Shown here: positions 1,443 to 63,643 of the stretch, in pieces
Layout of the letters: each line of letters begins with the position of its first letter
How positions within the stretch are numbered: position 1 is the first letter of the stretch
Source: an uncultured Pseudomonadota bacterium
GTDB lineage: Bacteria; Pseudomonadota; Alphaproteobacteria; Rs-D84
DNA length: 64,000 bases
Direction: 5' to 3'
NCBI GenBank assembly: GCA_902762295.1
Contig: CACWNX010000001.1
Span: forward strand, 596,094-660,093
Notes under the pieces: generated by a model
The model's database searches: none
What the model was told of the DNA's origin: nothing
The model's input: the letters and a program-made list of their open reading frames with translations, nothing else
Program-made: the position numbers and the translations under genes

Positions 1443-4400
1443 ATGCCAGAAAATATTCGTGCAACATCAGATGAAAACTTAATCGCATTTGCCAAGAATA
1501 TTGCGACCACATATGGAAAAATGGGCTTGCTGGCAAAAAGGTTGGTGACCCAGGTCGTTACGTCAACCAATAATATAGATGCAGTTAATCGGGTTATATC
1601 AAAGGTTGGGCAACTTGACCCAGAAAGCAAAAAACTGTTTGGAAATTATTTTGTCGGCGAAAATCTGGAAAATCTGGAAATGGCGACACGTGCACCGGCA
1701 ATTCTGGCGGCGGCATACGAATATATATCTGAACACCGTGATGACAGTGACGAAATGCGTGAACGCTTTGCACGAATTGGCGCGCATGTTGATACATTAT
1801 CGGCGAATTTTGCAAACACCGGTGGCATGGTTGTAAATGGCGGTGAATGGCCATTGGTTGATACGAATAATATCGCCGATGCATACACAGGATTACTGCG
1901 TACATTCGCAGCACGACGCGCCGATATTGAACGTTCGGGTGATAATGCCAAGGTTGCTGAATTCAATAATAATTTAGATTTGTTGCAAACGGTTATTGCT
2001 GAATACGATCATAATTGGGGGCTTTCGAACCTGTATCCCGAACATGCAGGCAAACTTGAAGACCGCTGGAGTGATTTATGGGATGCGCTGAATCGTGCAG
2101 AATTAACCCCCGAATTAAAGGAAAAATTGCACCAGTGGGGGTTCACTGATGCAAAAGGTAACGAAATTCCGCAATTCAAAAAGAATGGTAAATTGGATAA
2201 ATCCGGACGCTTGGCGGCGATTATCGATTTAACTCGCCACGATATTGCAAAGCAACATGCTGCTCGTATTAATGAAAAGATTGATGAAGATGCGTTGGCT
2301 GTGGAATTGAACGAAAAAATTGAATTTAAACTTTATAACATGGCGGTTGCTGATAAAGTAGCATCGTCAGCCAAAATTCAAGCAATGCGCGAGCAAAACC
2401 CGGATTATGAACCTGACTATGAACCAGAAATTGATATAGCGCGTTTTAATTCAGATCAAGATTATCGTGCGGCAGTGTTAGATAAATTATCCGAATATGG
2501 TGCGATTATTTCTGATACAGGTTATAACGCTCAGGTTGATGCCGACGTTAACGCAACCGCGGGTTGGACGGCGCGTGTTAAATCTAAATTAAGAAATGGC
2601 GCAGAAAATCTCGGCGGTTTCTTTGAACGTGTGTTTCATCCGATTAGTCGTGTTGACCGTTTGGCAAATGTTCGTTTAGCAGGTAGTATGGTTGATAAGC
2701 GCACAAGACGTATCCAGTTTATTAAACGCCTTGCTAAAGGATTTGGCAGTGCATTCATATACAGTGCATTTTTGACTGTAATTGTTACTACGGTTGCGGC
2801 AACAACTGGTATGTCGGCGGCTGTTGCGACAGCCGTACTTGGTGGGTCGCTAGCAATAGGTATTGGGGTTAAACAGGTGTTACGTTGGCGCCGGGCGCAA
2901 CAGAAAGCAAATAAACCAACCGATATCCATGCGTTTTTATCGGATAAACGATTGGTTGCGTCACTTGGGGTCAGCGCGATTGCCGTCATCGCAATGTGTT
3001 TTGGTGCTGCTGGTATGACAGAATTAGCTCGCGGATTTGGTGGACTAGCATTAGGGGTTGGGGCTACCAAAAATGCTGTGGAGGGTGGCTTAGATACCTG
3101 GGCACGTGGTGGATCTACATTGCAGGCAATAGCTGCCGGTTTAGCAAATGCTGGTGCAGTTATCGCTGGTGGACTGACAGGTCGTGGTTTGACGAATCTT
3201 GGAATGGATTGGATCAATAAACTGTTCCCAAGAAATACATTCTTGCAGACTGAACACACTCATACGGAGCAACGTGAAGTCACAGAACAAGTTGAACACA
3301 CTCGGACTGTGACCGATTGGCCAACAGAAACAACGCATGAAGCCGCAGTAAGGAATTGGTTCGGTGCCCGTTATCCACATAATCCTGAAGTTATGCAGGG
3401 GCTTCTTGATGCTGTAAATCATTATAACGCAGATACTGGGGCTAATTTGGATCCATGGGCCGCATTGCGTGGAATTGCATTATCTGGTGGTGATCCAAAT
3501 CACGGTGTATATAATGCTCCCGATTGGTTTAATTCGCACGGGTTTGCGGCAGAACAAATTCATGATGCGGCTAATGCATTACATCCTGATGGAACTTACG
3601 ACCCAGTTGGAATGGAAACATTAAAAGATTTGGTGACCCATCACCTTAGTTCAAAGGGTTATGTGGGAGAAATGCCTGGACATACGATAAAAACAAGTAC
3701 AGACGTATATCAATCGCGTGGCGAGATGCCGACTCAACGTACTGAAACGTGGACTGAATTAAAGAGTCATGTGGAAAATTACGATAAAACTGATTACGAT
3801 AGTGTAAATGATGGTGCATATGCGGCAGGTGGCAATTACAATTCCAAAGTTTATCGTGGCCTTCGTGACCGTATTGGTGCGGTGGATAATTATCCATTTA
3901 ATTCACTGCGACCATCTGATCGTCGCAAACCGATTGAACCGATTATCAAACCAACGGATGATGAACGGGATGGTGATATAGATGTGTTCCCACCGGTTGT
4001 TGTACGCAGACCAGATTTGCCGGTAAAACGCCAAAAACCCGAATTACCGGCAGAACGCGAAAAACCTGAATTGCCGGTAAAACCAGGTGGCGATGTTGAT
4101 ATCTTCAAACCGGTACCAATTGAAAAGCCGGTCCCGAAACCGGTGGTTGTTCCAATCTTGGATGACGATGAACCCGAAGACAAGATTTTTGCCATTACTC
4201 GTCCCCAGGCCAAAGCATGGAAAGATTTGCAAGAACGTCTGAAAAAGGTTCGTGCAAAACTAAAAAAAGGCCCACATGGATCCAAGGCGGCAAAATTGCG
4301 CGAGGAAGAATCAAAATTGACATATTTTATCAAAAATTTATGCAACCAGATTGGTCATTATGATCCTGATGTCATAGATCTTGCATCCAAAGAGGCACTT

Positions 4401-5717
4401 TTGCGTGAAAACCTAAATAGAAAAAACGCATTGATTGAGGATAAGCCTGGTGATAATGCATCTCAATGGGAGGTTGTTGATTGGCGCGCTGAAATTGCAA
4501 GGTTGGATAAAAAGATCAACGAACAGATTAAAGAATTTGGTTCTGCAGCTGATGCTGTTGCACATGCGAGTGCGGATGAATCACGTTTGTATTATCCAAT
4601 GCCGGTTCCCGGCATCCAGGCGCAAAAGAAGGCTGCGCGTCGTGCCGAATATGAATCGCATCGTGCAGAAATCTTGGAAACCCCATTGCCAAAACCAACA
4701 TCGCGCGTAAAACCAACCCAAGACGAAATTGTTGAAGATGCTGAATTCGTACCCGAATTTGATTTGCCAGAATATGAAAGTCAATTCAACGATGATGTGG
4801 ATTTAGACATTTCAAATCATCGTGTGCCTAAATTAGATTTGGGTCGGTTCAAAAAACCAAAATATGATATTAGTGATGATGAAATTCGTGTAATTGGCGG
4901 CAATGATGAATTTGTACCAGATTTATCAAAAAACACGAATGAAAAACCGGTGTCGCACGTGATTCATGAAAAACCACGTCACAATGAACGCGGTGGTTTG
5001 GTCGCGGCATTGCGCAATGCGTATAACAAAATCAAGAAACGCGTTTCGGGTCGTGAATATTTTGTGCCGGAATCTTTGATTTCAATCGCCGAAAATGCAA
5101 ACTTGATGCACGATCCGGTTGCAACAATTAACGGTGTACCGATTCATTTGGTTGATTTAACCGGTAATAATACACCAATCACACAAAACAATGATCGTGC
5201 CGTTGTGGTTGTTGATATTCGTGGATTACGTATACCGTTCTATTTATCAAACGGTGACGAGGACGGCAAGGCAGGGCATTGGACACCGTTGCAATCATTG
5301 TTCCGTGATGGTAAATGGAAGTCGTTCATGTTCATCAATAATAAGTTATCACATATCCAGGCGTTGTCTATGATAGCCGATGCATTAGATAACAAACTTG
5401 GCGATATTCGTAACTATCGTGATATTGAATTGACCGCAGAGTACCAGGCCAGTGGCAAAGATGGTTTTGTCGGCGGCGCAGATGCAATCGAACATGTTAA
5501 CCCAGATACCATATTCCGATTGATAAACGGTGCAAGATACGAAAGTGTCAACAACCATATGATATTCGGGACATACAGTGACAGTCGTGTTAGTGCCGAA
5601 GCAGCATGGTTGCAAGAATATTTGGACGAAAATGGATTGCCATCTGATGATGTAGTAGAAGAAAATATGAATTTGCTGCAGAGATGGCGCGCAAGACGCA
5701 AATCCAAGCATGAATAG
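1443..5717 (+). CDS. very large (1424 aa) hypothetical membrane protein with soluble N-terminal domain, Gly/Ala-rich TM block and Pro-rich KPELP/KPVP repeats; no recognisable catalytic motif
   Basis: Long uninterrupted ORF, GGAGAGGAAT SD-like sequence before the ATG. Hydrophobic segments at about aa 420-560. Repeats PDLPVKRQKPELPAEREKPELPVKPGG...KPVPIEKPVPKPVVVP. Confidence 0.7.
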   Translation: MPENIRATSDENLIAFAKNIATTYGKMGLLAKRLVTQVVTSTNNIDAVNRVISKVGQLDPESKKLFGNYFVGENLENLEMATRAPAILAAAYEYISEHRDDSDEMRERFARIGAHVDTLSANFANTGGMVVNGGEWPLVDTNNIADAYTGLLRTFAARRADIERSGDNAKVAEFNNNLDLLQTVIAEYDHNWGLSNLYPEHAGKLEDRWSDLWDALNRAELTPELKEKLHQWGFTDAKGNEIPQFKKNGKLDKSGRLAAIIDLTRHDIAKQHAARINEKIDEDALAVELNEKIEFKLYNMAVADKVASSAKIQAMREQNPDYEPDYEPEIDIARFNSDQDYRAAVLDKLSEYGAIISDTGYNAQVDADVNATAGWTARVKSKLRNGAENLGGFFERVFHPISRVDRLANVRLAGSMVDKRTRRIQFIKRLAKGFGSAFIYSAFLTVIVTTVAATTGMSAAVATAVLGGSLAIGIGVKQVLRWRRAQQKANKPTDIHAFLSDKRLVASLGVSAIAVIAMCFGAAGMTELARGFGGLALGVGATKNAVEGGLDTWARGGSTLQAIAAGLANAGAVIAGGLTGRGLTNLGMDWINKLFPRNTFLQTEHTHTEQREVTEQVEHTRTVTDWPTETTHEAAVRNWFGARYPHNPEVMQGLLDAVNHYNADTGANLDPWAALRGIALSGGDPNHGVYNAPDWFNSHGFAAEQIHDAANALHPDGTYDPVGMETLKDLVTHHLSSKGYVGEMPGHTIKTSTDVYQSRGEMPTQRTETWTELKSHVENYDKTDYDSVNDGAYAAGGNYNSKVYRGLRDRIGAVDNYPFNSLRPSDRRKPIEPIIKPTDDERDGDIDVFPPVVVRRPDLPVKRQKPELPAEREKPELPVKPGGDVDIFKPVPIEKPVPKPVVVPILDDDEPEDKIFAITRPQAKAWKDLQERLKKVRAKLKKGPHGSKAAKLREEESKLTYFIKNLCNQIGHYDPDVIDLASKEALLRENLNRKNALIEDKPGDNASQWEVVDWRAEIARLDKKINEQIKEFGSAADAVAHASADESRLYYPMPVPGIQAQKKAARRAEYESHRAEILETPLPKPTSRVKPTQDEIVEDAEFVPEFDLPEYESQFNDDVDLDISNHRVPKLDLGRFKKPKYDISDDEIRVIGGNDEFVPDLSKNTNEKPVSHVIHEKPRHNERGGLVAALRNAYNKIKKRVSGREYFVPESLISIAENANLMHDPVATINGVPIHLVDLTGNNTPITQNNDRAVVVVDIRGLRIPFYLSNGDEDGKAGHWTPLQSLFRDGKWKSFMFINNKLSHIQALSMIADALDNKLGDIRNYRDIELTAEYQASGKDGFVGGADAIEHVNPDTIFRLINGARYESVNNHMIFGTYSDSRVSAEAAWLQEYLDENGLPSDDVVEENMNLLQRWRARRKSKHE

Positions 5718-5736
5718 TAATACATATATCAAATAA

Positions 5737-5768
5737 TAAAAATGCGGGGATTTTTCCCCGCGTTTTTT
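5737..5768 (+). terminator. intrinsic terminator
   Basis: aaaaatgcggggatttttccccgcgttttttt: perfect hairpin followed by T-run. Confidence 0.65.
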
Positions 5769-5776
5769 TAAATAAT

Positions 5777-6757
5777 ATGTTTTTTATTATGAAAATTTAT
5801 GATATAATGCTTGGTATGAAGGCAGGGATTTTATACATCTTATCCGCATGTGTGGCGCTGAATTCGGGCGCGGCAATGGCAAATTGGCAATATTCCGGCG
5901 AATACACATATGATATGTCATATTATGATAATGGTGGTCGTACGGCGGTATCACTGCGTGGTGGCGCATCGTATGCGATGTCGGGTATGAAAAACAACGC
6001 TAATTCAATTGTGTATGCGCTGTGTATAAATGATAATGGCGAATTTGATTTTCCAACCGCAGATGGTTGCCCTTCTGGATACACCTATGCAGGTACGGGT
6101 AATTTGTCGTCTTTGGGGTTATCTGATTTATCGGGTTTAAATTTTTCCGCCGGGGTCAGTTTGGGTTGGATAATGCCGAATCATCCTCAGTGGCGATTGG
6201 AAATTGGGTGGGACACATTTTCGGATGTTGATTATAATAAGACCCCGCTGTTTTCCGGAAATATGCAGTTAAGTGGCGGATATACATTGGCGAATTTGAC
6301 GGTTGGCGGTGTTCAATCAACTGTATCCAGCGATGTAATCAGTGCAATGGCATTTTATGATTTCTTTGATGGGTTGTATAAGCCGCTACACCAAATGATT
6401 CCGTACATTGGAATTGGTGTCGGTTATGGTGATACCAAAACAGTAATGAGTCTTTTTGACCCAACCGGTGATTTATCGCAATTTGAAGATTTGACAAACT
6501 TTGGTCAATTGGAAAACAATGTTATTCATTTTTACCGTGCGACAACGAATACAACAAATATTGTTGGTATTGGGGCGCTTGGGATTTCCTATGGCCTTAG
6601 TGATAAATTTTTTATAGATTTTGGTGCGCGCGTGTTTTATTTGCCACGCGTAAAGTACCAGTTGGTGAATTCTGATGCATCGCGGCGGCTTGATTGGTTC
6701 AGTGCCAAGAATTTGATATATGCCAATGTCATGCTGGGCATTCGTTTTGAATTCTAA
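5777..6757 (+). CDS. outer-membrane β-barrel protein (surface-antigen / OmpA-like), C-terminal Phe
   Basis: Signal-peptide-like N-terminus (the in-frame MKAGILYILSACVALNSGAAMA is the likely true start). Alternating amphipathic β-strand pattern; ends ...GIRFEF, the terminal aromatic typical of β-barrel OMPs. Confidence 0.6.
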   Translation: MFFIMKIYDIMLGMKAGILYILSACVALNSGAAMANWQYSGEYTYDMSYYDNGGRTAVSLRGGASYAMSGMKNNANSIVYALCINDNGEFDFPTADGCPSGYTYAGTGNLSSLGLSDLSGLNFSAGVSLGWIMPNHPQWRLEIGWDTFSDVDYNKTPLFSGNMQLSGGYTLANLTVGGVQSTVSSDVISAMAFYDFFDGLYKPLHQMIPYIGIGVGYGDTKTVMSLFDPTGDLSQFEDLTNFGQLENNVIHFYRATTNTTNIVGIGALGISYGLSDKFFIDFGARVFYLPRVKYQLVNSDASRRLDWFSAKNLIYANVMLGIRFEF

Positions 6758-6759
6758 AT

Positions 6760-8289
6760 TTATTTCACGCTGTATTTACCACGATTTGTTGGACGATATG
6801 ACAGTGCCTCGGTGATATCGGACATTTCAACATTTTCCGCCCCACGCAAATCGGCAATTGTACGTGCAATGCGTTTAATGCGATTATATCCGCGTGCAGA
6901 CATCCCCATCTTTTCCGCCGCCATGTTCAAGAAATTTGTCAATTCATCGGAAAGTGGCACATGTTTTTCTAAATCGGCACCATCAAGGCGCGCATTCACA
7001 TAGCCCTGGCGCGATATTTGGGCGGCGCGTGCACGAACAACGCGTTCGCGAATTGTCGCACTGGATTCCGCCGGTGCCGAATTATCATTCTTCATTTCCC
7101 ATGGATTTACCGCATCAACATCAACATGCAAATCAATACGGTCAAGCAATGGCCCCGAAATTTTATTCTGATATGCCTCGGCACATCTGGGCGCGCGCGA
7201 ACAGGACAGGGCGGCATTACCCAAATGGCCACATGGACACGGATTCATCGCCGCAATCAGTTGGAATTGTGCCGGATATGTCGCGTTACGCCGTGCGCGT
7301 GAAATCATAATTTTGCCCGATTCCATTGGTTGTCGCAGTATTTCCAATGTCGCACGATTAAATTCAGGTAATTCGTCCAAAAACAAAACCCCGTTGTGCG
7401 CCAATGATATCTCACCCGGTCGCGCATCCGAACCACCGCCCGCCAATGCGACCGGACTTGATGTGTGGTGCACACTGCGGAATGGACGTTGCGATACAAG
7501 GCTTTTATTATCTAATCCACCGGCAATAGAATAAATAACGGATGTTTCCAGAATTTCATCTGCGGTCATTTCGGGCAGAATGGTTGCCAATCGCGATGCC
7601 AACATCGTTTTTCCCGATCCCGGCGGGCCAACCATTAACATTGCATGTCCACCCGCCGCCGCGATTTCCAGCGCGCGTTTTGCCGCGGCCTGGCCATGAA
7701 CCTCGGCCATATCAATATTTGATTGATTTGTTTGATTCATCACTGGTGCATCCGGCAACGCAATCGGATTTTTACCATTAAAGTGATTTATCAGTTCTAA
7801 AACATGATTTGCCGCCAAAATATTATCATGTCCCGCCAATCGTGCCTCGGTTCCCTGGGGGCCAGGGCATATAATACCAAATCCGTTTTTATTTGCCCAA
7901 ACACTTGCCGCCAGAACGCCATTTGTTTTAACAATCGCACCATTCAGACCGACTTCGCCAATAATAATATATTTTGATAACTTATCTTCGGGCAGTATAT
8001 CAAATGCACACAATATTCCGCACAGTATCGGCAAATCAAAATGTGCACCGGTTTTTTCTACATCGGCGGGCGACAGGTTTACCGTTAAACGTTTTGATGG
8101 TAATTGCAATCCCAGTGCAGATAACACATTTATAATGCGTTGCGCCGATTCTTTGACCGCGCGATCCGCCAACCCGATAATACTAAAATCTGGCCGTGCC
8201 AGTCCATGTGAAATCTGAACCTGGACATCTATCTTGGTGGCATCCATGCCATTAAAGATAACAGAATATAACGAAATCATGATTATCAC
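6760..8289 (-). CDS. comM: Mg-chelatase-like AAA+ ATPase ComM/YifB
   Basis: N-terminal Lon-protease-like subdomain, Walker A GPPGSGKT, C-terminal ChlI-like domain with CPCG zinc motif. Confidence 0.85.
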   Translation of the reverse strand: MIIMISLYSVIFNGMDATKIDVQVQISHGLARPDFSIIGLADRAVKESAQRIINVLSALGLQLPSKRLTVNLSPADVEKTGAHFDLPILCGILCAFDILPEDKLSKYIIIGEVGLNGAIVKTNGVLAASVWANKNGFGIICPGPQGTEARLAGHDNILAANHVLELINHFNGKNPIALPDAPVMNQTNQSNIDMAEVHGQAAAKRALEIAAAGGHAMLMVGPPGSGKTMLASRLATILPEMTADEILETSVIYSIAGGLDNKSLVSQRPFRSVHHTSSPVALAGGGSDARPGEISLAHNGVLFLDELPEFNRATLEILRQPMESGKIMISRARRNATYPAQFQLIAAMNPCPCGHLGNAALSCSRAPRCAEAYQNKISGPLLDRIDLHVDVDAVNPWEMKNDNSAPAESSATIRERVVRARAAQISRQGYVNARLDGADLEKHVPLSDELTNFLNMAAEKMGMSARGYNRIKRIARTIADLRGAENVEMSDITEALSYRPTNRGKYSVK

Positions 8290-11480: not shown

Positions 11481-11537
11481 GAATTTTCTCCTTCGCCTTT
11501 TGATAGATATTATATCATAAAAACATAATGATTAAAA

Positions 11538-11757
11538 GTAAAAACACCGCACAAGGCGATGTTTTTATTTTTATCCTGGCGCACCCAGAAGGATTGTTCG
11601 CGTTGCTCACCACACGTAAGACTCGAACTTCATTTCATTCGTTCTCGTCAACTATCGTGTCGAACCAGGGTTCGCATCCCCGTTGTTCCAACGGTAAAAA
11701 CAAAAACACCGCACAAGGCGATGTTTTTATTTTTATCCTGGCGCACCCAGAAGGATT
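11538..11757. repeat. direct repeat (~56 bp, copies at 11538-11595 and 11700-11757) bracketing a 103-bp insert at the 3' end of tRNA-Arg(ACG)
   Basis: Identical strings aaaaacaccgcacaaggcgatgtttttatttttatcctggcgcacccagaaggatt at both positions. The repeat equals the tRNA 3' terminus (T-loop to CCA) plus its downstream flank. Confidence 0.85.
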
Positions 11758-11815
11758 CGAACCCTCAGTCTTCTGATCCGTAGTCAGACGCTTTATCCAG
11801 TTGAGCTATGGGTGC
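11739..11815 (-). tRNA. tRNA-Arg (anticodon ACG)
   Basis: Acceptor GCACCCA/TGGGTGC, anticodon loop CTACGGA, T-loop TTCGAAT, encoded CCA. Confidence 0.9.
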
Positions 11816-23624: not shown

Positions 23625-23885
23625 TTTCAAAGTACTTCGGCAACAAAAGTTGCCTCGCCTCGCAACCCTTCGGGTTCTCGCCCCTTTGCCGACAAAATTA
23701 AAAACCGACCTAACGGACGGTTTTAAAATTTTGGTGCGAGCAAAGTACTTCGGTGGCATACGCCACCTCGCCTCGCAACCCTTCGGGTTCTCGCCCCTTT
23801 GCCGACAAAATTAAAAACCGACCTAACGCCCTTTGCCGACAAAATTAAAAACCGACCTAACGGACGGTTTTAAAATTTTGGTGCG
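23625..23885. repeat. tandem ~120/140-bp repeat units ending in duplicated tRNA-Gly 3' terminus, between guaC start and tRNA-Gly
   Basis: Unit caaagtacttcgg...ctcgcctcgcaacccttcgggttctcgcccctttgccgacaaaattaaaaaccgacctaacggacggttttaaaattttggtgcgagcaaag occurs twice (23625-23744 and 23745-23885). The second unit has an extra internal 34-bp duplication. The last 25 bp equal the tRNA-Gly 3' end plus flank. Confidence 0.85.
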
Positions 23886-33323: not shown

Positions 33324-33400
33324 TGGTGGAGCTGATGGGACTCAAACCCACGACCTCCTGAATGCAAATCAGGCGCTCTAATCAACTGAGCTACAACCCC
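33324..33400 (-). tRNA. tRNA-Ala (anticodon TGC)
   Basis: Acceptor with G3:U70, anticodon loop TTTGCAT, T-loop TTTGAGT, encoded CCA. Confidence 0.9.
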
Positions 33401-35397: not shown

Positions 35398-35473
35398 GGG
35401 GCTATAGCTCAGTTGGTAGAGCAAATGACTTTTAATCATTGGGTCCAGGGTTCGAGTCCCTGTGGCCCCACCA
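35398..35473 (+). tRNA. tRNA-Lys (anticodon TTT)
   Basis: Acceptor GGGGCTA/TGGCCCC, anticodon loop CTTTTAA, T-loop TTCGAGT, encoded CCA. Confidence 0.9.
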
Positions 35474-35676
35474 AAAATCAAAACCGACCTTGTGTCGGTT
35501 TTTGTTTTTTGATTGGGAAAACAAGACGAGAACCCGTGGGTTCGACACGATAGTTGGTGAAAACAAGCCTTGGCGCAGTTTGAACCTTACGAGTGGAAGG
35601 GTCCCAACACGCAGTGTTGGGATGTGCAATCCCTGTGGCCCCACCAAAAATCAAAACCGACCTTGTGTCGGTTTTT
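35458..35676. repeat. direct repeat (46 bp, copies at 35458-35503 and 35631-35676) bracketing a ~125-bp insert downstream of tRNA-Lys
   Basis: ccctgtggccccaccaaaaatcaaaaccgaccttgtgtcggttttt twice: the tRNA 3' terminus plus its terminator hairpin. The second copy is preceded by gggtcc, which matches the tRNA variable loop. Confidence 0.85.
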
Positions 35677-36385
35677 ATTTTTTATTTTCGTTTTTTATCG
35701 GTGGTGGCGCAACCTGGGTCAACATCTGGTCAAAATTCTTAGAAATTTCGGCGGTTGAATCCAGCCAATCGGTTATTTCGTCTATAATATTTCGTATATG
35801 GCGCGCAATTACGCGCCGACCACCCCCAAGGTGATGCGTGCCAACCAGTCGCGACATATCACGTGTTAGTTCCGTCATTATGCGCATTTGTTCCGGCGAA
35901 AAAACATTTTCCTTTGCGTACCCCAGAATAAGATTTTCCAGTTCTTCGTAATATTGGTGCAGTAAATTCATATTGTCCATTCGCAACGACAATTCGCGTG
36001 CAATGTGCGCCTCGGAAAGGGCGCGCATAGAATTTACAGCACCGCGTGTCAGCCGCCCACGCATCTTTATCATCTTGCGCAGAATAATCAGCGTATGCAA
36101 CATAATCGTATTGATTTTATCGGTCATGCCATTAATCAGGGTTTCTTGCAATCGTCGCGACACCCGGTTTGTCGTGTAATCGTAAAGCAAAAACACCAGC
36201 GGTATCGCCAACAATGATGCGGAAATATTGCTAATCAAACCTTCAACTGCCGGGTCCCGGACATTGTCCAATGATACCGAAAACAGAACAATTCCGCCGG
36301 CGATGGATATTGCATACGGCAAAGTTTTCAGCAAAAAATTACGAATTTTGTTTCTCATGGCATAAATTTTGCCAAAAATACCCAC
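35675..36385 (-). CDS. hypothetical membrane-anchored protein (236 aa)
   Basis: Two N-terminal TM helices, then a soluble helical region. No motif recognised. Confidence 0.45.
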   Translation of the reverse strand: MGIFGKIYAMRNKIRNFLLKTLPYAISIAGGIVLFSVSLDNVRDPAVEGLISNISASLLAIPLVFLLYDYTTNRVSRRLQETLINGMTDKINTIMLHTLIILRKMIKMRGRLTRGAVNSMRALSEAHIARELSLRMDNMNLLHQYYEELENLILGYAKENVFSPEQMRIMTELTRDMSRLVGTHHLGGGRRVIARHIRNIIDEITDWLDSTAEISKNFDQMLTQVAPPPIKNENKK

Positions 36386-46488: not shown

Positions 46489-46660
46489 AGAATTACACCC
46501 AAATATTATTGGTTCAATTCAACAATAGCAAAGTCAAAAATTTCATTCAACACAAAAATGCATCCGCACCAACCAAAGGAATTTTTACAACAAAAAAATC
46601 TGCGCCAGTTTCCTGTGCGCAGATTTTATTCACTCTTTCGAAAGAGCAATTGGTGGGTTA

Positions 46661-46737
46661 TGTAGGACTCGAACCCACGACCAAAGCGTTATGAGCGCTC
46701 CGCTCTAACCAACTGAGCTAATAACCCACGGCGGTTA
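46661..46737 (-). tRNA. tRNA-Met (anticodon CAT); elongator type, could alternatively be the lysidine-modified tRNA-Ile2
   Basis: Acceptor GGGTTAT/ATAACCC with a paired 1:72, so not initiator. Anticodon loop CTCATAA. Encoded CCA. Two downstream hairpin terminators. Confidence 0.8.
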
Positions 46738-51513: not shown

Positions 51514-51640
51514 TTTATTACCTTTTTGTTCCTGTTATGTTTCATATATTATATTCCGGGTTTCTGGTGCCAGGCACCCGGCGGCCCCGCAAAAAAGCTG
51601 AACAGATATAATCAACAATCGCCAATTATATCAAACCTAA

Positions 51641-53669
<2,029 letters not shown>

Positions 53670-55474: not shown

Positions 55475-55663
55475 TGGCGCACCCGGCGCGATTCCCTCGG
55501 GCAAATGTCCTGCGGGGCATTCGTTAGCGCTTGAACTTCGTTTTACTCGTTCTCGCTTACTCATTGTCGAACGCGACGCGTTCAAATCGCGGGGCGCACA
55601 GCAATAAATTCAAATCATCATTGCGGGATAATTTAAATTTATTGGCGCACCCGGCGCGATTCG
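55475..55663. repeat. 20-bp duplication of the tRNA-Arg(CCG) 3' terminus (55475-55494 and 55644-55663) bracketing a ~149-bp insert
   Basis: tggcgcacccggcgcgattc occurs twice. The insert contains a T-arm-like gcgttcaaatcgcggggcgca and a tcgttctcg...gtcgaac segment resembling the Arg(ACG) and Lys inserts. Confidence 0.8.
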
Positions 55664-60460: not shown

Positions 60461-61618
60461 ATGAGAATATCGCGTCGGAATCTTTTGCAAATTACGGGCG
60501 TTGGAATTGTTATTGCGGGGCTTTTGCCGCGTATGGCGTTTGCTGCGCGTAATTCATTGAAGTCTATGCGCACCGGGGTCCAGCCGAATGGTAAAACACG
60601 TCTTGTAATTGAAACGGCAAACCGCCCGTCATATACATTGGTTTACGGTGAAAATACATTGACGGTTAAGTTATCAAATACGCACGGGGACAAATCTGTA
60701 AATGCAAAGTTGGCATCGGGCACATTGGTAAAATCTATAAGTCAAACCCAAGTAGGCGATTCACTGAATATTGTTGCAGATTTAAAAAAACATGTCGCCG
60801 ATATTCCAAAGAATCAAATTATGATTTTAGAACCAAATGGTGATAATGATTATCGGTTGGTTCTGGATTTTGTGGCGGGAACATCGGGGACCAAGGCAAC
60901 GGCAAAAAACGAAAATGATAATGCAACTAAATCTGCAACAAAGAAGCATATAATTGTTGTTGATGCGGGACATGGTGGCAAGGACCCAGGCTGTATTGGA
61001 CGTGGCGGAACAAAAGAAAAAACGATTGTTTTATCGGTTGCACGCAAATTGCGTAATGCATTGCAATCTGCGGGTTTTGGTGTATATTTAACGCGAAATG
61101 ATGATACATATTTAAAATTGAATGAACGTTCTGCGATTGGTGAAAAACGACGCGCAGATTTGTTCTTGTCAATTCACGCGAATGCGAACCCAAGTCGTGC
61201 AATGAAAGGATTTTCTATTTATACATTGTCCGAAAAGGCATCTGACGAAGAGGCACAAAAACTTGCAGATGCCGAAAATGCAGCGGACAAGATCGATGTT
61301 TCTGGGTTTGAAAGTTTTTCCAAAGATATTCGTATCGCCTTATCATCACTGCAACAACACGCCGTTGCAGAAATGTCCGAAGAATATGCAAATGGTTGCG
61401 CACGTGCGTTTAATCGCGCAGGAATAGAGCAACAGCCTGGACCTGCGGTTCGTCATGCGCCATTGGCAGTACTGCGTTCGACTGTGCCGGGTGCGCTGAT
61501 TGAATGCGGGCATTTATCAAATTCAGCCGAAGAAAAATTACTGAAAAGTTCTGCGCACCAGGATAAATTAGTCGCGGCAATTGTAAAATCTGTAAAAAAT
61601 TATGATTTTGAGGCATAA
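60461..61618 (+). CDS. amiC: N-acetylmuramoyl-L-alanine amidase AmiC-like (Tat signal, AMIN domain, Amidase_3 domain)
   Basis: Twin-arginine signal SRRNLLQITGVGIVIAGLLPRMAFA. AMIN-type N-domain. Catalytic domain begins IIVVDAGHGGKDPG. Confidence 0.85.
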   Translation: MRISRRNLLQITGVGIVIAGLLPRMAFAARNSLKSMRTGVQPNGKTRLVIETANRPSYTLVYGENTLTVKLSNTHGDKSVNAKLASGTLVKSISQTQVGDSLNIVADLKKHVADIPKNQIMILEPNGDNDYRLVLDFVAGTSGTKATAKNENDNATKSATKKHIIVVDAGHGGKDPGCIGRGGTKEKTIVLSVARKLRNALQSAGFGVYLTRNDDTYLKLNERSAIGEKRRADLFLSIHANANPSRAMKGFSIYTLSEKASDEEAQKLADAENAADKIDVSGFESFSKDIRIALSSLQQHAVAEMSEEYANGCARAFNRAGIEQQPGPAVRHAPLAVLRSTVPGALIECGHLSNSAEEKLLKSSAHQDKLVAAIVKSVKNYDFEA

Positions 61619-61865
61619 AATCAAAAAATCCGCGATTGCGGATTTTTAACATTTTAATCTGGCGGAGATAGGTTTCTGTCCTTGATAAACAATAATCAAA
61701 ATCTATAAAAATCTTGTTCCGGCGATTTTTATGATTTTTCTAATTGTTCATCTGCGTATTGTGCGCTGCGTTCTGTGGGACTCGCACACATCCCCCTATC
61801 TCCTTGGTTAAAATCAAAAAATCCGCGATTGCGGATTTTTAACATTTTAATCTGGCGGAGATAGG
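61617..61865. repeat. 56-bp direct repeat (61617-61672 and 61810-61865) bracketing a 137-bp insert downstream of tRNA-Ser
   Basis: aaaatcaaaaaatccgcgattgcggatttttaacattttaatctggcggagatagg twice: the tRNA 3' end plus its terminator hairpin. The insert ends in ccccctatctcc, an inverted copy of the tRNA acceptor/T-stem. Confidence 0.85.
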
Positions 61866-61943
61866 GGGATTCGAACCCTCGATACAGTTTCCTGTATACG
61901 CGATTTCGAGTCGCGCGCATTCAACCAGCTCTGCCATATCTCC
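61853..61943 (-). tRNA. tRNA-Ser (anticodon CGA), long variable arm
   Basis: GGAGATA acceptor, anticodon loop CTCGAAA, extended variable arm, T-loop TTCGAAT, encoded CCA. Confidence 0.9.
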
Positions 61944-63447: not shown

Positions 63448-63643
63448 GCTTTTTTATAATGGGACGGATGACCGGATTGTTTCACCAATATTGTCCCATT
63501 TGCTTTCGCAAACCGGCGCACTTCCGTTCGCCTTGGGTCAATATTTCGAACCGGCTGCTTCGCCGGTTCAAACCCGAACATTCACGATTATAAAAAATCG
63601 CCCCAAATGGGACGCTTTTTTATAATGGGGCGGATGACCGGAT
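63448..63643. repeat. ~31-bp duplication of the tRNA-His 3' end plus flank (63448-63478 and 63613-63643) bracketing a ~134-bp insert
   Basis: gcttttttataatggg(a/g)cggatgaccggatt twice. The insert contains the tRNA-like fragment cagccggttcgaaatattgacc (compare the His T-arm gccggttcgaatccggtc). Confidence 0.8.

Follow-up and report, generated by a model that had tools for sequence, protein, structure and literature searches.

Why does a transfer RNA (tRNA) gene carry a second copy of its own 3' end behind it, separated from the first by a short insert without coding capacity? This question is raised by the tRNA-Arg(ACG) locus in a 64,000-nucleotide (nt) stretch of an uncultured alphaproteobacterium of the lineage Rs-D84 (contig CACWNX010000001.1; the whole stretch is called the window in the following). 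Our analysis suggests that the insert belongs, as one copy, to a family of small, non-coding, non-autonomous mobile cassettes located at tRNA 3' ends in Enterousia-like (Rs-D84) Alphaproteobacteria, a reading that we consider as evenly balanced between right and wrong. Literature searches found no described equivalent of such cassettes, and a family of ~100-base non-coding cassettes behind many tRNAs in small-genome gut Alphaproteobacteria is seemingly undescribed.

The exact direct repeat has a length of 56 nt (11540-11595 and 11702-11757) and, at 97% identity, reaches 63 nt (11533-11595 and 11695-11757); the starts of the two copies are 162 nt apart. A preliminary description of this locus had placed the copies at 11538-11595 and 11700-11757 around an insert of 103 bp; the repeat as such was confirmed, but both left edges were 2 nt off and we measured 106 nt between the exact copies (11596-11701). 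It had correctly recognized the copy beside the tRNA gene as the genuine tRNA 3' end plus flank: the tRNA called by ARAGORN at 11739-11815 on the minus strand contains the 19 nt in question. The copy at 11702-11757 is composed of these last 19 nt of tRNA-Arg(ACG), AATCCTTCTGGGTGCGCCA, which extend from the T-loop to CCA, and of the terminator flank, which contributes 37 nt (44 nt to the extended repeat). The tRNA itself, which would be the target and anchor of the cassette, is intact (62.4 bits with the Rfam tRNA model) and its 77 nt are identical in all relatives examined. A 56-nt exact repeat cannot have originated by chance in 64 kb, and as three independent metagenomes (L001-L003) yielded an identical assembly of the sequence, an assembly artefact is ruled out.

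On the tRNA strand, which is the minus strand of the window, the first repeat copy (11695-11757) contains the tRNA end (11739-11757, T-loop A to CCA) and, directly 3' of the tRNA, the terminator flank "A" (ggataaaaataaaaacatcgccttgtgcggtgtttttgttttt, 11696-11738), whose identical second copy scores terminator-like. The following left arm (11676-11695) consists of a small hairpin, accgttggaacaacgg, and of GGAT, which is complementary to the ATCC with which the tail copy begins; none of the tRNAs sampled bears a tail that matches this odd left-arm hairpin (ATCCCCGTTGTTCCA). Next comes the palindrome CGAACC-CT-GGTTCGA (11660-11674), the right half of which copies the T-stem and T-loop and ends at T-loop nt 58, and then the conserved 64-nt type 1a core, CACGATAG...GCGAAC (11596-11659; covariance-model match at 11610-11666). 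The second repeat copy (11533-11595) is made up of a pseudo tRNA tail (11577-11595, AATCC..CCA) and the second terminator flank (11533-11576), after which the promoter of the downstream gene is located. Neither an open reading frame (ORF) nor a promoter-like site was found within the insert, and we agree with the preliminary description that there is no frame for a tag peptide. An 18-nt sequence of the core, GGTTCGACACGATAGTTG, recurs in the insert behind tRNA-Lys (35539-35556), and the idea of a core common to the Arg(ACG), Lys and Arg(CCG) inserts was borne out by covariance-model matches at all three.

The suggested likeness of the insert to a transfer-messenger RNA (tmRNA) did not hold. 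ARAGORN made no tmRNA call there and Rfam found no match on 11596-11701, neither at the gathering threshold nor at E<=5; no curated Rfam RNA family matches the cassette, and both a tmRNA and a permuted tmRNA are ruled out by these two tools. The alpha-type two-piece tmRNA of this genome is located elsewhere (51553-51895, 169.8 bits, Rfam). Its coding piece begins with GGGGGUGUAUCAGUUUCGACAG and shares with the insert only a generic UUCGAC. It is true that the GGUUCGAC of the cassette resembles the UUCGAC of the tRNA-like domain of tmRNA and that a 3' CCA tail is also present, but the cassette fails the tmRNA models of both tools and has no tag frame. Furthermore, an acceptor stem of the tmRNA kind is absent in the window copy, where only GGAT and ATCC pair and the 5' segment is an unrelated hairpin. 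The GGTTCGA that looked tmRNA-like is a copy of a tRNA T-stem and T-loop. The motif tracks the host tRNA even if this is unusual, as with GGGGTCCGA behind tRNA-Met.

Relatives of the locus were gathered via a neighbouring 378-amino-acid protein and turned out to be metagenome-assembled genomes from animal guts named Candidatus Enterousia or uncultured Alphaproteobacteria. Enterousia belongs to the order Rs-D84, with genomes below ~1 Mb (PMC12306168). A metagenome scan with the core motif CGACACGATAGTTGRNRARAAC alone, metagenomes being the data in which the spread outside the clade was examined, yielded 52 matches in 48 loci. Forty-two of the 52 are located at most 460 nt downstream of a tRNA on the same strand, 34 of them at a distance of 66-84 nt, whereas the expectation from position alone is about 5%. 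The remaining ten comprise three chance or coding matches, three in loci whose tRNA is cut off where the contig stops (one in L018, two in L034), two that follow an incomplete copy of a tRNA behind a larger island (L045, L046) and two in another small RNA-like gene, here called "X" (L032, L053). The hosts in the core scan are eight tRNA species (Arg-ACG, Arg-CCG, Arg-TCT, Glu, Lys, Met, His and Val), and the scan brought ~45 further copies in Candidatus Enterousia-like gut and rumen bacteria. With a covariance model trained on 32 cores, divergent copies were also found behind tRNA-Asp. We regard membership of the insert in this family and its specificity for tRNA genes as established.

The same holds for the architecture. 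On the tRNA strand the order is tRNA, terminator flank, inverted tail segment, palindrome, core, the tail again and usually a terminator, and the non-coding cassettes have a size of about 100-130 nt. In several lineages the inverted segment is a degenerate reverse complement of the tRNA tail; compared with 14 tRNA types, the inverted arm matches the tRNA of its own cassette best in 16 of 36 copies. The palindrome (for example GAGAACC-GCA-GGTTCGA) contains in its right half the 5' strand of the T-stem plus TTCGA, and this half tracks distinctive hosts: GGGGTCCGA for Met, GCGCG for Arg-CCG and GCCGG for His in the window, with GAGGG in some Arg-ACG and Asp copies. The core, which starts with CACGATAG and ends with ..GCGAAC(A/T) or ..GGGAATGTGCA, begins directly after (T/C)CGA in all copies, and the terminal tail copy spans T-loop nt 59 to CCA. 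The core separates nt 58 from nt 59 in this partial copy of the tRNA. As the sequence of the right palindrome half depends on the host tRNA, deletion of the core restores the T-arm of the host exactly, including the unusual GGGGTCCGA|ATCCC of Met. At the cassette ends only GGAT...ATCC is constant and the rest varies with the tRNA. Hairpins are present near both ends in a long subfamily; a short subfamily, which includes the window copy, has one hairpin and none at the right end.

The core hairpin has the general form ACACG/CGUGU, G-R-Y/R-Y-C, a tandem G.A and GAAC/GUUC, in the window copy ACACG/CGTGT, GAC/GTC, a tandem G.A and GAAC/GTTC. Compensatory double changes occur at three pairs of this helix (in 11, 7 and 3 sequences), 92.9% of the cells are paired, and the observed covariation score was reached by 0 of 500 shuffles, so that we treat the covariation of the core hairpin as a firm result. 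RNAalifold additionally pairs GAACC with GGTTC across 36 copies, with the hairpin in all 36. The structural support for the fold comes from covariation, and thermodynamic support is not significant. In both helices the positions that deviate from Watson-Crick pairing are G.U/G.T or tandem G.A on the tRNA-sense strand and would be A.C or T.C on the opposite strand. Because such tolerated mismatches are found on that strand only, the sense single strand, either as RNA or as DNA, is probably what folds.

Folding of the sense strand is also what one would expect if the cassettes were made from RNA. A read-through or chimeric pre-tRNA transcript could have been reverse-transcribed and its complementary DNA recombined behind the gene, with the inverted tail as a pairing with the tRNA 3' end in the manner of a primer-binding site or as a product of snap-back priming. 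The inverted segment complements the tRNA 3' end, with exact matches of 13-15 nt in the type 2 cassettes described below, the pairing rules indicate the tRNA-sense single strand and the duplicated segment reaches the terminator of the transcript. However, a reverse transcriptase was seen neither at the loci nor among the window neighbours, the inverted arm lacks the copy of the core expected from a simple snap-back of the element RNA, the type 2 complement ends before the terminal CA, and mature tRNA does not contain terminator sequences. We therefore consider this route as very improbable. A snap-back product could likewise result from replication errors of the tandem-inversion-duplication type at terminator or T-arm hairpins, without any dedicated machinery: the order tail, terminator hairpin, inverted tail and direct tail corresponds to such a product, and TTCGAA is palindromic. 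Against this stands that the same core and boundaries recur at many tRNAs in many genomes, that cassette terminators differ from host terminators and that horizontal spread of whole units is already suggested by the Asp mosaic and the 61/64 identical cores presented below, which leaves fold-back errors hardly any probability.

Evidence for insertion comes from sites that are empty in one genome and filled in another. Directly after the tRNA-Asp gene of L046 the terminator gaatttaccgccgtttcggcgg is located; in L015 a cassette that has another terminator lies in between, and the host terminator is now found behind the cassette. The site behind tRNA-Leu(TAG) is empty in L018 and L041, and in L015 (10490-10630), L021, L033 and L056 (2873-3110) one or two near-complete pseudo-copies stand behind the gene, in which the first ~5 nt are missing and a hairpin of 34-42 nt is inserted into the D-loop at GGCGA^AA. 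The same ribosomal-protein-like gene is located downstream of the empty and the filled Leu(TAG) sites. At Arg(ACG), the 77-nt tRNA is identical throughout the occupied loci and different cassettes occupy the site: type 1a in the window and L025, the related core 1b in L004, L019, L023 and L030, 1c in L012 and the unrelated type 2 in L006-L011, with nested or tandem combinations in L005, L023 and L025. Flank A always precedes type 1 and flank B type 2. The displaced flank is seen at Asp; the window copy has type A on both flanks and is therefore ambiguous in this respect. The duplications are about 17 to 64 nt long and include terminators brought by the cassette. Insertion polymorphism and cassette-borne terminators are thus direct observations, and a pure target-site duplication of the transposon type is rejected for the family, because the cassettes bring their own terminators.

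Hops between tRNAs and tandem arrays were observed as well. The cores at Arg-ACG in the window and at Arg-TCT in L047 are identical at 61 of 64 positions, an Asp-linked copy ends in a Lys-like tail, a His copy in L028 combines a Glu-type left arm with a Lys-type core, and L027, L034 and L043 contain tandem arrays. In L033 (1050-1420) tRNA-Asp is inverted relative to the cassette, presumably by recombination between inverted tail copies. Further mini-units follow a CCA end in some loci (L009:5408-5470, L012:5845-5875; in L012, L027, L052, L054 and L059); one kind is a 30-nt repeat, CCCTTCGCCAAGGCTATGGCTGGCAGGCCA, which itself ends in CCA, and another kind starts with TCCGTCTT.

These signs of mobility bear on the idea that the insert is a resident tRNA- or tmRNA-like small RNA gene, functional and not mobile, which arose by local duplication of the tail. 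Such a gene would explain the conserved and covarying core hairpin, the end of the unit with CCA tail and terminator, the wobble pairs in favour of the sense strand and the unspecific likeness between GGUUCGAC and the 5' part of tmRNA. It is hard to reconcile with the negative results of ARAGORN and Rfam, with the lack of a promoter-like site inside the insert, with a fold that is not unusually stable and with an inverted arm that decays freely. Mobility is indicated by sites that are filled or empty, by almost identical cores at different tRNAs, by arrays and by the exchange of cassettes at a single locus. We regard a resident RNA gene as highly unlikely.

How, then, could such a cassette move? 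We propose that a cassette carrying a mimic of the tRNA tail would recombine with the chromosomal tRNA gene and that the 56-bp repeat would be the attL/attR-like duplication left behind. This would correspond to a Campbell-type insertion of tail, terminator, inverted arm, palindrome and core at the T-loop or, in an equivalent description, to insertion of the segment from terminator to core and tail after CCA. The tRNA would remain intact, its original tail or terminator would be displaced downstream, and the cassette would supply its own terminator for the upstream tRNA. Integration might be carried out by a site-specific enzyme of the tyrosine-recombinase type supplied in trans. The substrate of this enzyme may be the tRNA-sense single strand in folded form; there the inverted arm would pair with the direct T-arm half and the tail, so that the fold would mimic the target duplex and the core would be extruded exactly at the junction or crossover point. 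We infer this folded-strand account from the arrangement of the parts, for all of which it would be the most economical one. Rather doubtful, and put forward as a tentative proposal, is the more general idea of a new element class: gene-less cassettes whose single-strand fold would imitate the T-arm/acceptor duplex of a chosen tRNA and direct a host or trans-acting recombinase to that tRNA, with the inverted tail as an exchangeable targeting module and a 58/59 slot that would take interchangeable structured cores.

Several results weigh against mobile cassettes of this kind. All nine Arg(ACG) loci examined are occupied, and no empty site was found among them. In the window copy the tail arm is weak, as the inverted arm agrees with the tRNA only over GGAT and CGAACC, and the predicted folds are no more stable than shuffled sequences (z = -0.15 and -0.81 for whole unit and core, respectively). 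Many copies have near-identical terminators on both sides, which would equally result from a target-site duplication. Genes for a recombinase, transposase or reverse transcriptase are present neither in the cassettes nor recurrently near them, no circular or excised form of the cassette was seen, and a double-stranded circle of 160 bp is implausible as substrate of an integrase. Finally, the core of gene "X" is a clean insertion or deletion at CGA^AT without other cassette parts, which fits a core moving alone.

This last point leads to the main rival, a two-step origin. Here the core would be a very small transposon of single-stranded DNA, one of the palindrome-associated elements of the IS200/IS605 kind. 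It would insert 3' of (T/Y)CGA in sequences resembling a T-loop, duplicating no target, and would persist only in dispensable partial tRNA copies left behind tRNA genes by other events. Direct support is provided by gene "X", where the core is present at GTCGA^AT in unit 1 of the tandem genes in L032 and in L053, and is cleanly absent from unit 2 of L032, with no duplication. The exact position between nt 58 and 59 with restoration of the T-arm after removal, the one slot shared by unrelated cores, the D-loop insert of the Leu(TAG) pseudo-copies at GGCGA^AA and the hairpins near both ends of the long subfamily also fit. On the other hand, there is no TnpA/TnpB-like gene in ~60 loci (the loci were searched, not whole genomes), the short subfamily with the window copy has no right-end hairpin, and no uninterrupted T-arm copy was found among the type-1 loci. 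Moreover, the inverted and direct partial tRNA copies behind many tRNAs, always occupied, are left unexplained. Taken together, we judge a separately moving core to be unlikely.

Gene "X" is itself an unannotated 77-nt tRNA-like RNA gene (L032:309-473 and 617-694; L053:5463-5628) with a fold z of -3.35. It shows an acceptor-like stem, GGGCGGA/TCCGCCC plus ACC, and has its own promoter and terminator, followed by a gene for a helix-turn-helix protein; no Rfam match was found for it.

Compared with elements of the IS200/IS605 type and MITEs (miniature transposable elements with inverted repeats), the cassettes are similar in being ~100 nt long, non-coding, hairpin-rich and multi-copy, and the core as a clean indel 3' of the fixed motif CGA^A without duplication resembles the IS200/IS605 pattern, so that there is a partial fit. 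In contrast to MITEs, the cassettes have no short target duplication of fixed length and no convincing terminal inverted repeats common to all copies, and no autonomous parent was found, and unlike both groups they are located strictly behind tRNA genes and end in a tRNA-specific tail. An autonomous parent element was searched for in ~400 kb of loci without result, clustering of the ORFs of ~60 loci returned syntenic housekeeping genes only and no cis-encoded enzyme, and Pfam revealed no recombinase among the window neighbours.

The closest known kind is the tRNA-targeting integrative element, and we rate the cassette as a miniature, gene-less form of it. Such elements insert at the 3' part of a tRNA, regenerate an intact tRNA and form arrays beside the tRNA (10.1101/2020.12.28.424599). 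Elements with tyrosine integrases (temperate phages, integrative and conjugative elements, phage-inducible chromosomal islands and tycheposons) share with the cassettes the insertion at the tRNA 3' end, the intact tRNA, the partial copy and the arrays; they leave partial tRNA copies that start in the T-loop or the anticodon loop. Direct repeat, intact tRNA and displaced flank are all found for the cassettes, the flank at the level of the family, and the arrangement fits the insertion logic of tyrosine integrases that target the T-loop. The differences are that the cassette is ~100 nt long and non-coding, with neither an integrase nor any other gene and with no phage or viral relative found, and that it contains an inverted copy of the target and an extra copy of the T-stem across a conserved hairpin.

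Classical integrase islands use the same tRNAs in the genomes of relatives. An island with a tyrosine integrase and DUF3800 is inserted in tRNA-Met of L045 (1000-4473), where the partial tRNA copy begins in the anticodon loop, L046 has an island with two HNH-like proteins at tRNA-Glu (4392-6950), and a Gp49/HI1420 toxin-antitoxin cassette that ends with ..gggcgcgcca is present at tRNA-Arg of L011 (4453-5330). The insert could also be the scar of a larger integrase-borne island or prophage that lost nearly its whole interior, in line with these islands and with partial tRNA repeats starting in the T-loop, which are the classical signature of tyrosine-integrase elements (Williams 2002, cited in 10.1101/2020.12.28.424599). 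However, a comparison by blastn with 50,697 phage records matched only the tRNA part and exact-core scans of IMG/VR viral contigs gave nothing for type 1 or type 2, and on these results an origin from a phage attP was rejected as well. Furthermore, the ~45 copies at nine tRNA species have the same ~100-nt content, the same boundaries and covarying cores, to which independent deletions would not converge. As the copies share content and boundaries and the phage and viral collections lack relatives, we think that a prophage scar is a most improbable explanation.

Two further systems are informative with regard to the proposed mobile cassette. In integron attC sites and the attP(+) of the CTX phage, imperfect inverted repeats fold, one strand mimics a duplex target and the mismatches are strand-specific; cassettes of the integron type accumulate in arrays, and the enzyme need not be encoded by the cassette. 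In a similar way, the inverted arms described here can fold, and G.T or tandem G.A pairs occur in them exclusively on the tRNA-sense strand. The target is different, namely a T-arm/acceptor segment of a tRNA and not attI or dif, and the R'/R'' core motif GTTRRRY is matched just loosely by the GTTCGAC of the cassette. Archaeal tRNA introns, which occur at non-canonical positions such as 58/59, resemble the cassette in that a tRNA-like sequence is interrupted exactly after T-loop nt 58 and before nt 59, but the cassette interrupts only a copy of the 3' third of the tRNA behind an intact gene. Bacteria are not known to possess the bulge-helix-bulge splicing endonuclease.

The window contains more such inserts than the preliminary description had named: its set of Arg-ACG, Lys and Arg-CCG was correct but incomplete, as His, Gly and Ser carry them too, and it had not recognized the insert as part of a putatively mobile family. 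Altogether, six of the nine window tRNAs (Arg-ACG, Gly-GCC with two tandem units, Lys-TTT, Arg-CCG, Ser-CGA and His-GTG) bear an insert of ~50-150 nt, after which their own 3' end is repeated; the rest of the window is housekeeping DNA with ~42% GC. The type 1a sister cassette behind tRNA-Lys(TTT) is located on the plus strand (35511-35629) between 54-nt repeats (35457-35510 and 35630-35683) and reaches 76.6 bits with the covariance model, compared with 75.9 bits for Arg-ACG and 18.3 bits (E 0.04) for a divergent type-1 cassette behind tRNA-Arg(CCG) (55495-55642, minus strand; 20-nt tail copy at 55475-55494). The following three are also on the minus strand. Behind tRNA-His a cassette with a different core occupies the same slot (63479-63612, 32-nt flanking repeats), and its palindrome, TTTGAACCGGC..GCCGGTTCGAA, agrees with the His T-stem. 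Two short cassettes in tandem follow tRNA-Gly(GCC) (23628-23878); their hairpin tips differ by compensatory changes, ggtggcgtatgccacc vs ggcaacttttgttgcc, and the array closes with just CTTTG of the tRNA tail before the promoter of the next gene. A "type 2" cassette behind tRNA-Ser(CGA) (61673-61808) is flanked by perfect 57-nt repeats, and its first 13 nt are exactly the reverse complement of the tRNA 3' end.

In the type 2 family (window 61616-61943, minus strand; L006:1857-2050, L009, L010 and L011) this complementary segment varies with the target tRNA, being GGAGATAGGGGGA for Ser and GCGCACC[C/A]AGAAGGA behind tRNA-Arg(ACG) of relatives, and a highly conserved body (..GCAGCGCACAATACGCAGATGAACAATTAGAAAAATC..ATTGTTTATCAAGG) and a short tRNA tail come after it. 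No tail duplication is present in the window behind tRNA-Ala(GGC) (300-375), tRNA-Ala(UGC) (33324-33400) and one tRNA-Met(CAT) (46651-46727), and Thr(GGU), Pro(UGG) and Ala of relatives are likewise unoccupied; therefore, only a subset of tRNAs is targeted. Two other sequences were seen close to these loci in relatives. Directly after cassettes at Arg(ACG) an ORF of 103-122 amino acids (MNAQEK...FGKRAK) without Pfam match is found (L005:157-525, L006:2111-2422, L009, L011:5602-5967 and L013:3506-3876), which is absent from the window. Near tRNA loci a conserved, structured-looking leader, ..ggtcgggg..ccccgaccatgcgggga..ggtgcaaaaa.., occurs (L006:1460-1700, L043:9760-9990) upstream of small opposite-strand ORFs lacking assignment, and it may be a cis-regulatory RNA.

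If the cassettes are mobile as proposed, the tRNA genes of gut-symbiont genomes below 1 Mb would be colonized by tiny gene-less elements that standard annotation misses. The prediction of islands and prophages from att sites is complicated by them, as the partial tRNA copies of cassettes are not prophage borders. The compact conserved hairpin motif (GA-GAAC...GTTC-GA) is available for a search for binding partners, and targeting by a folded mimic of the target would be of interest to engineers of site-specific insertion. The cassettes also point to a site-specific recombination activity that is aimed at the T-loop of tRNAs.

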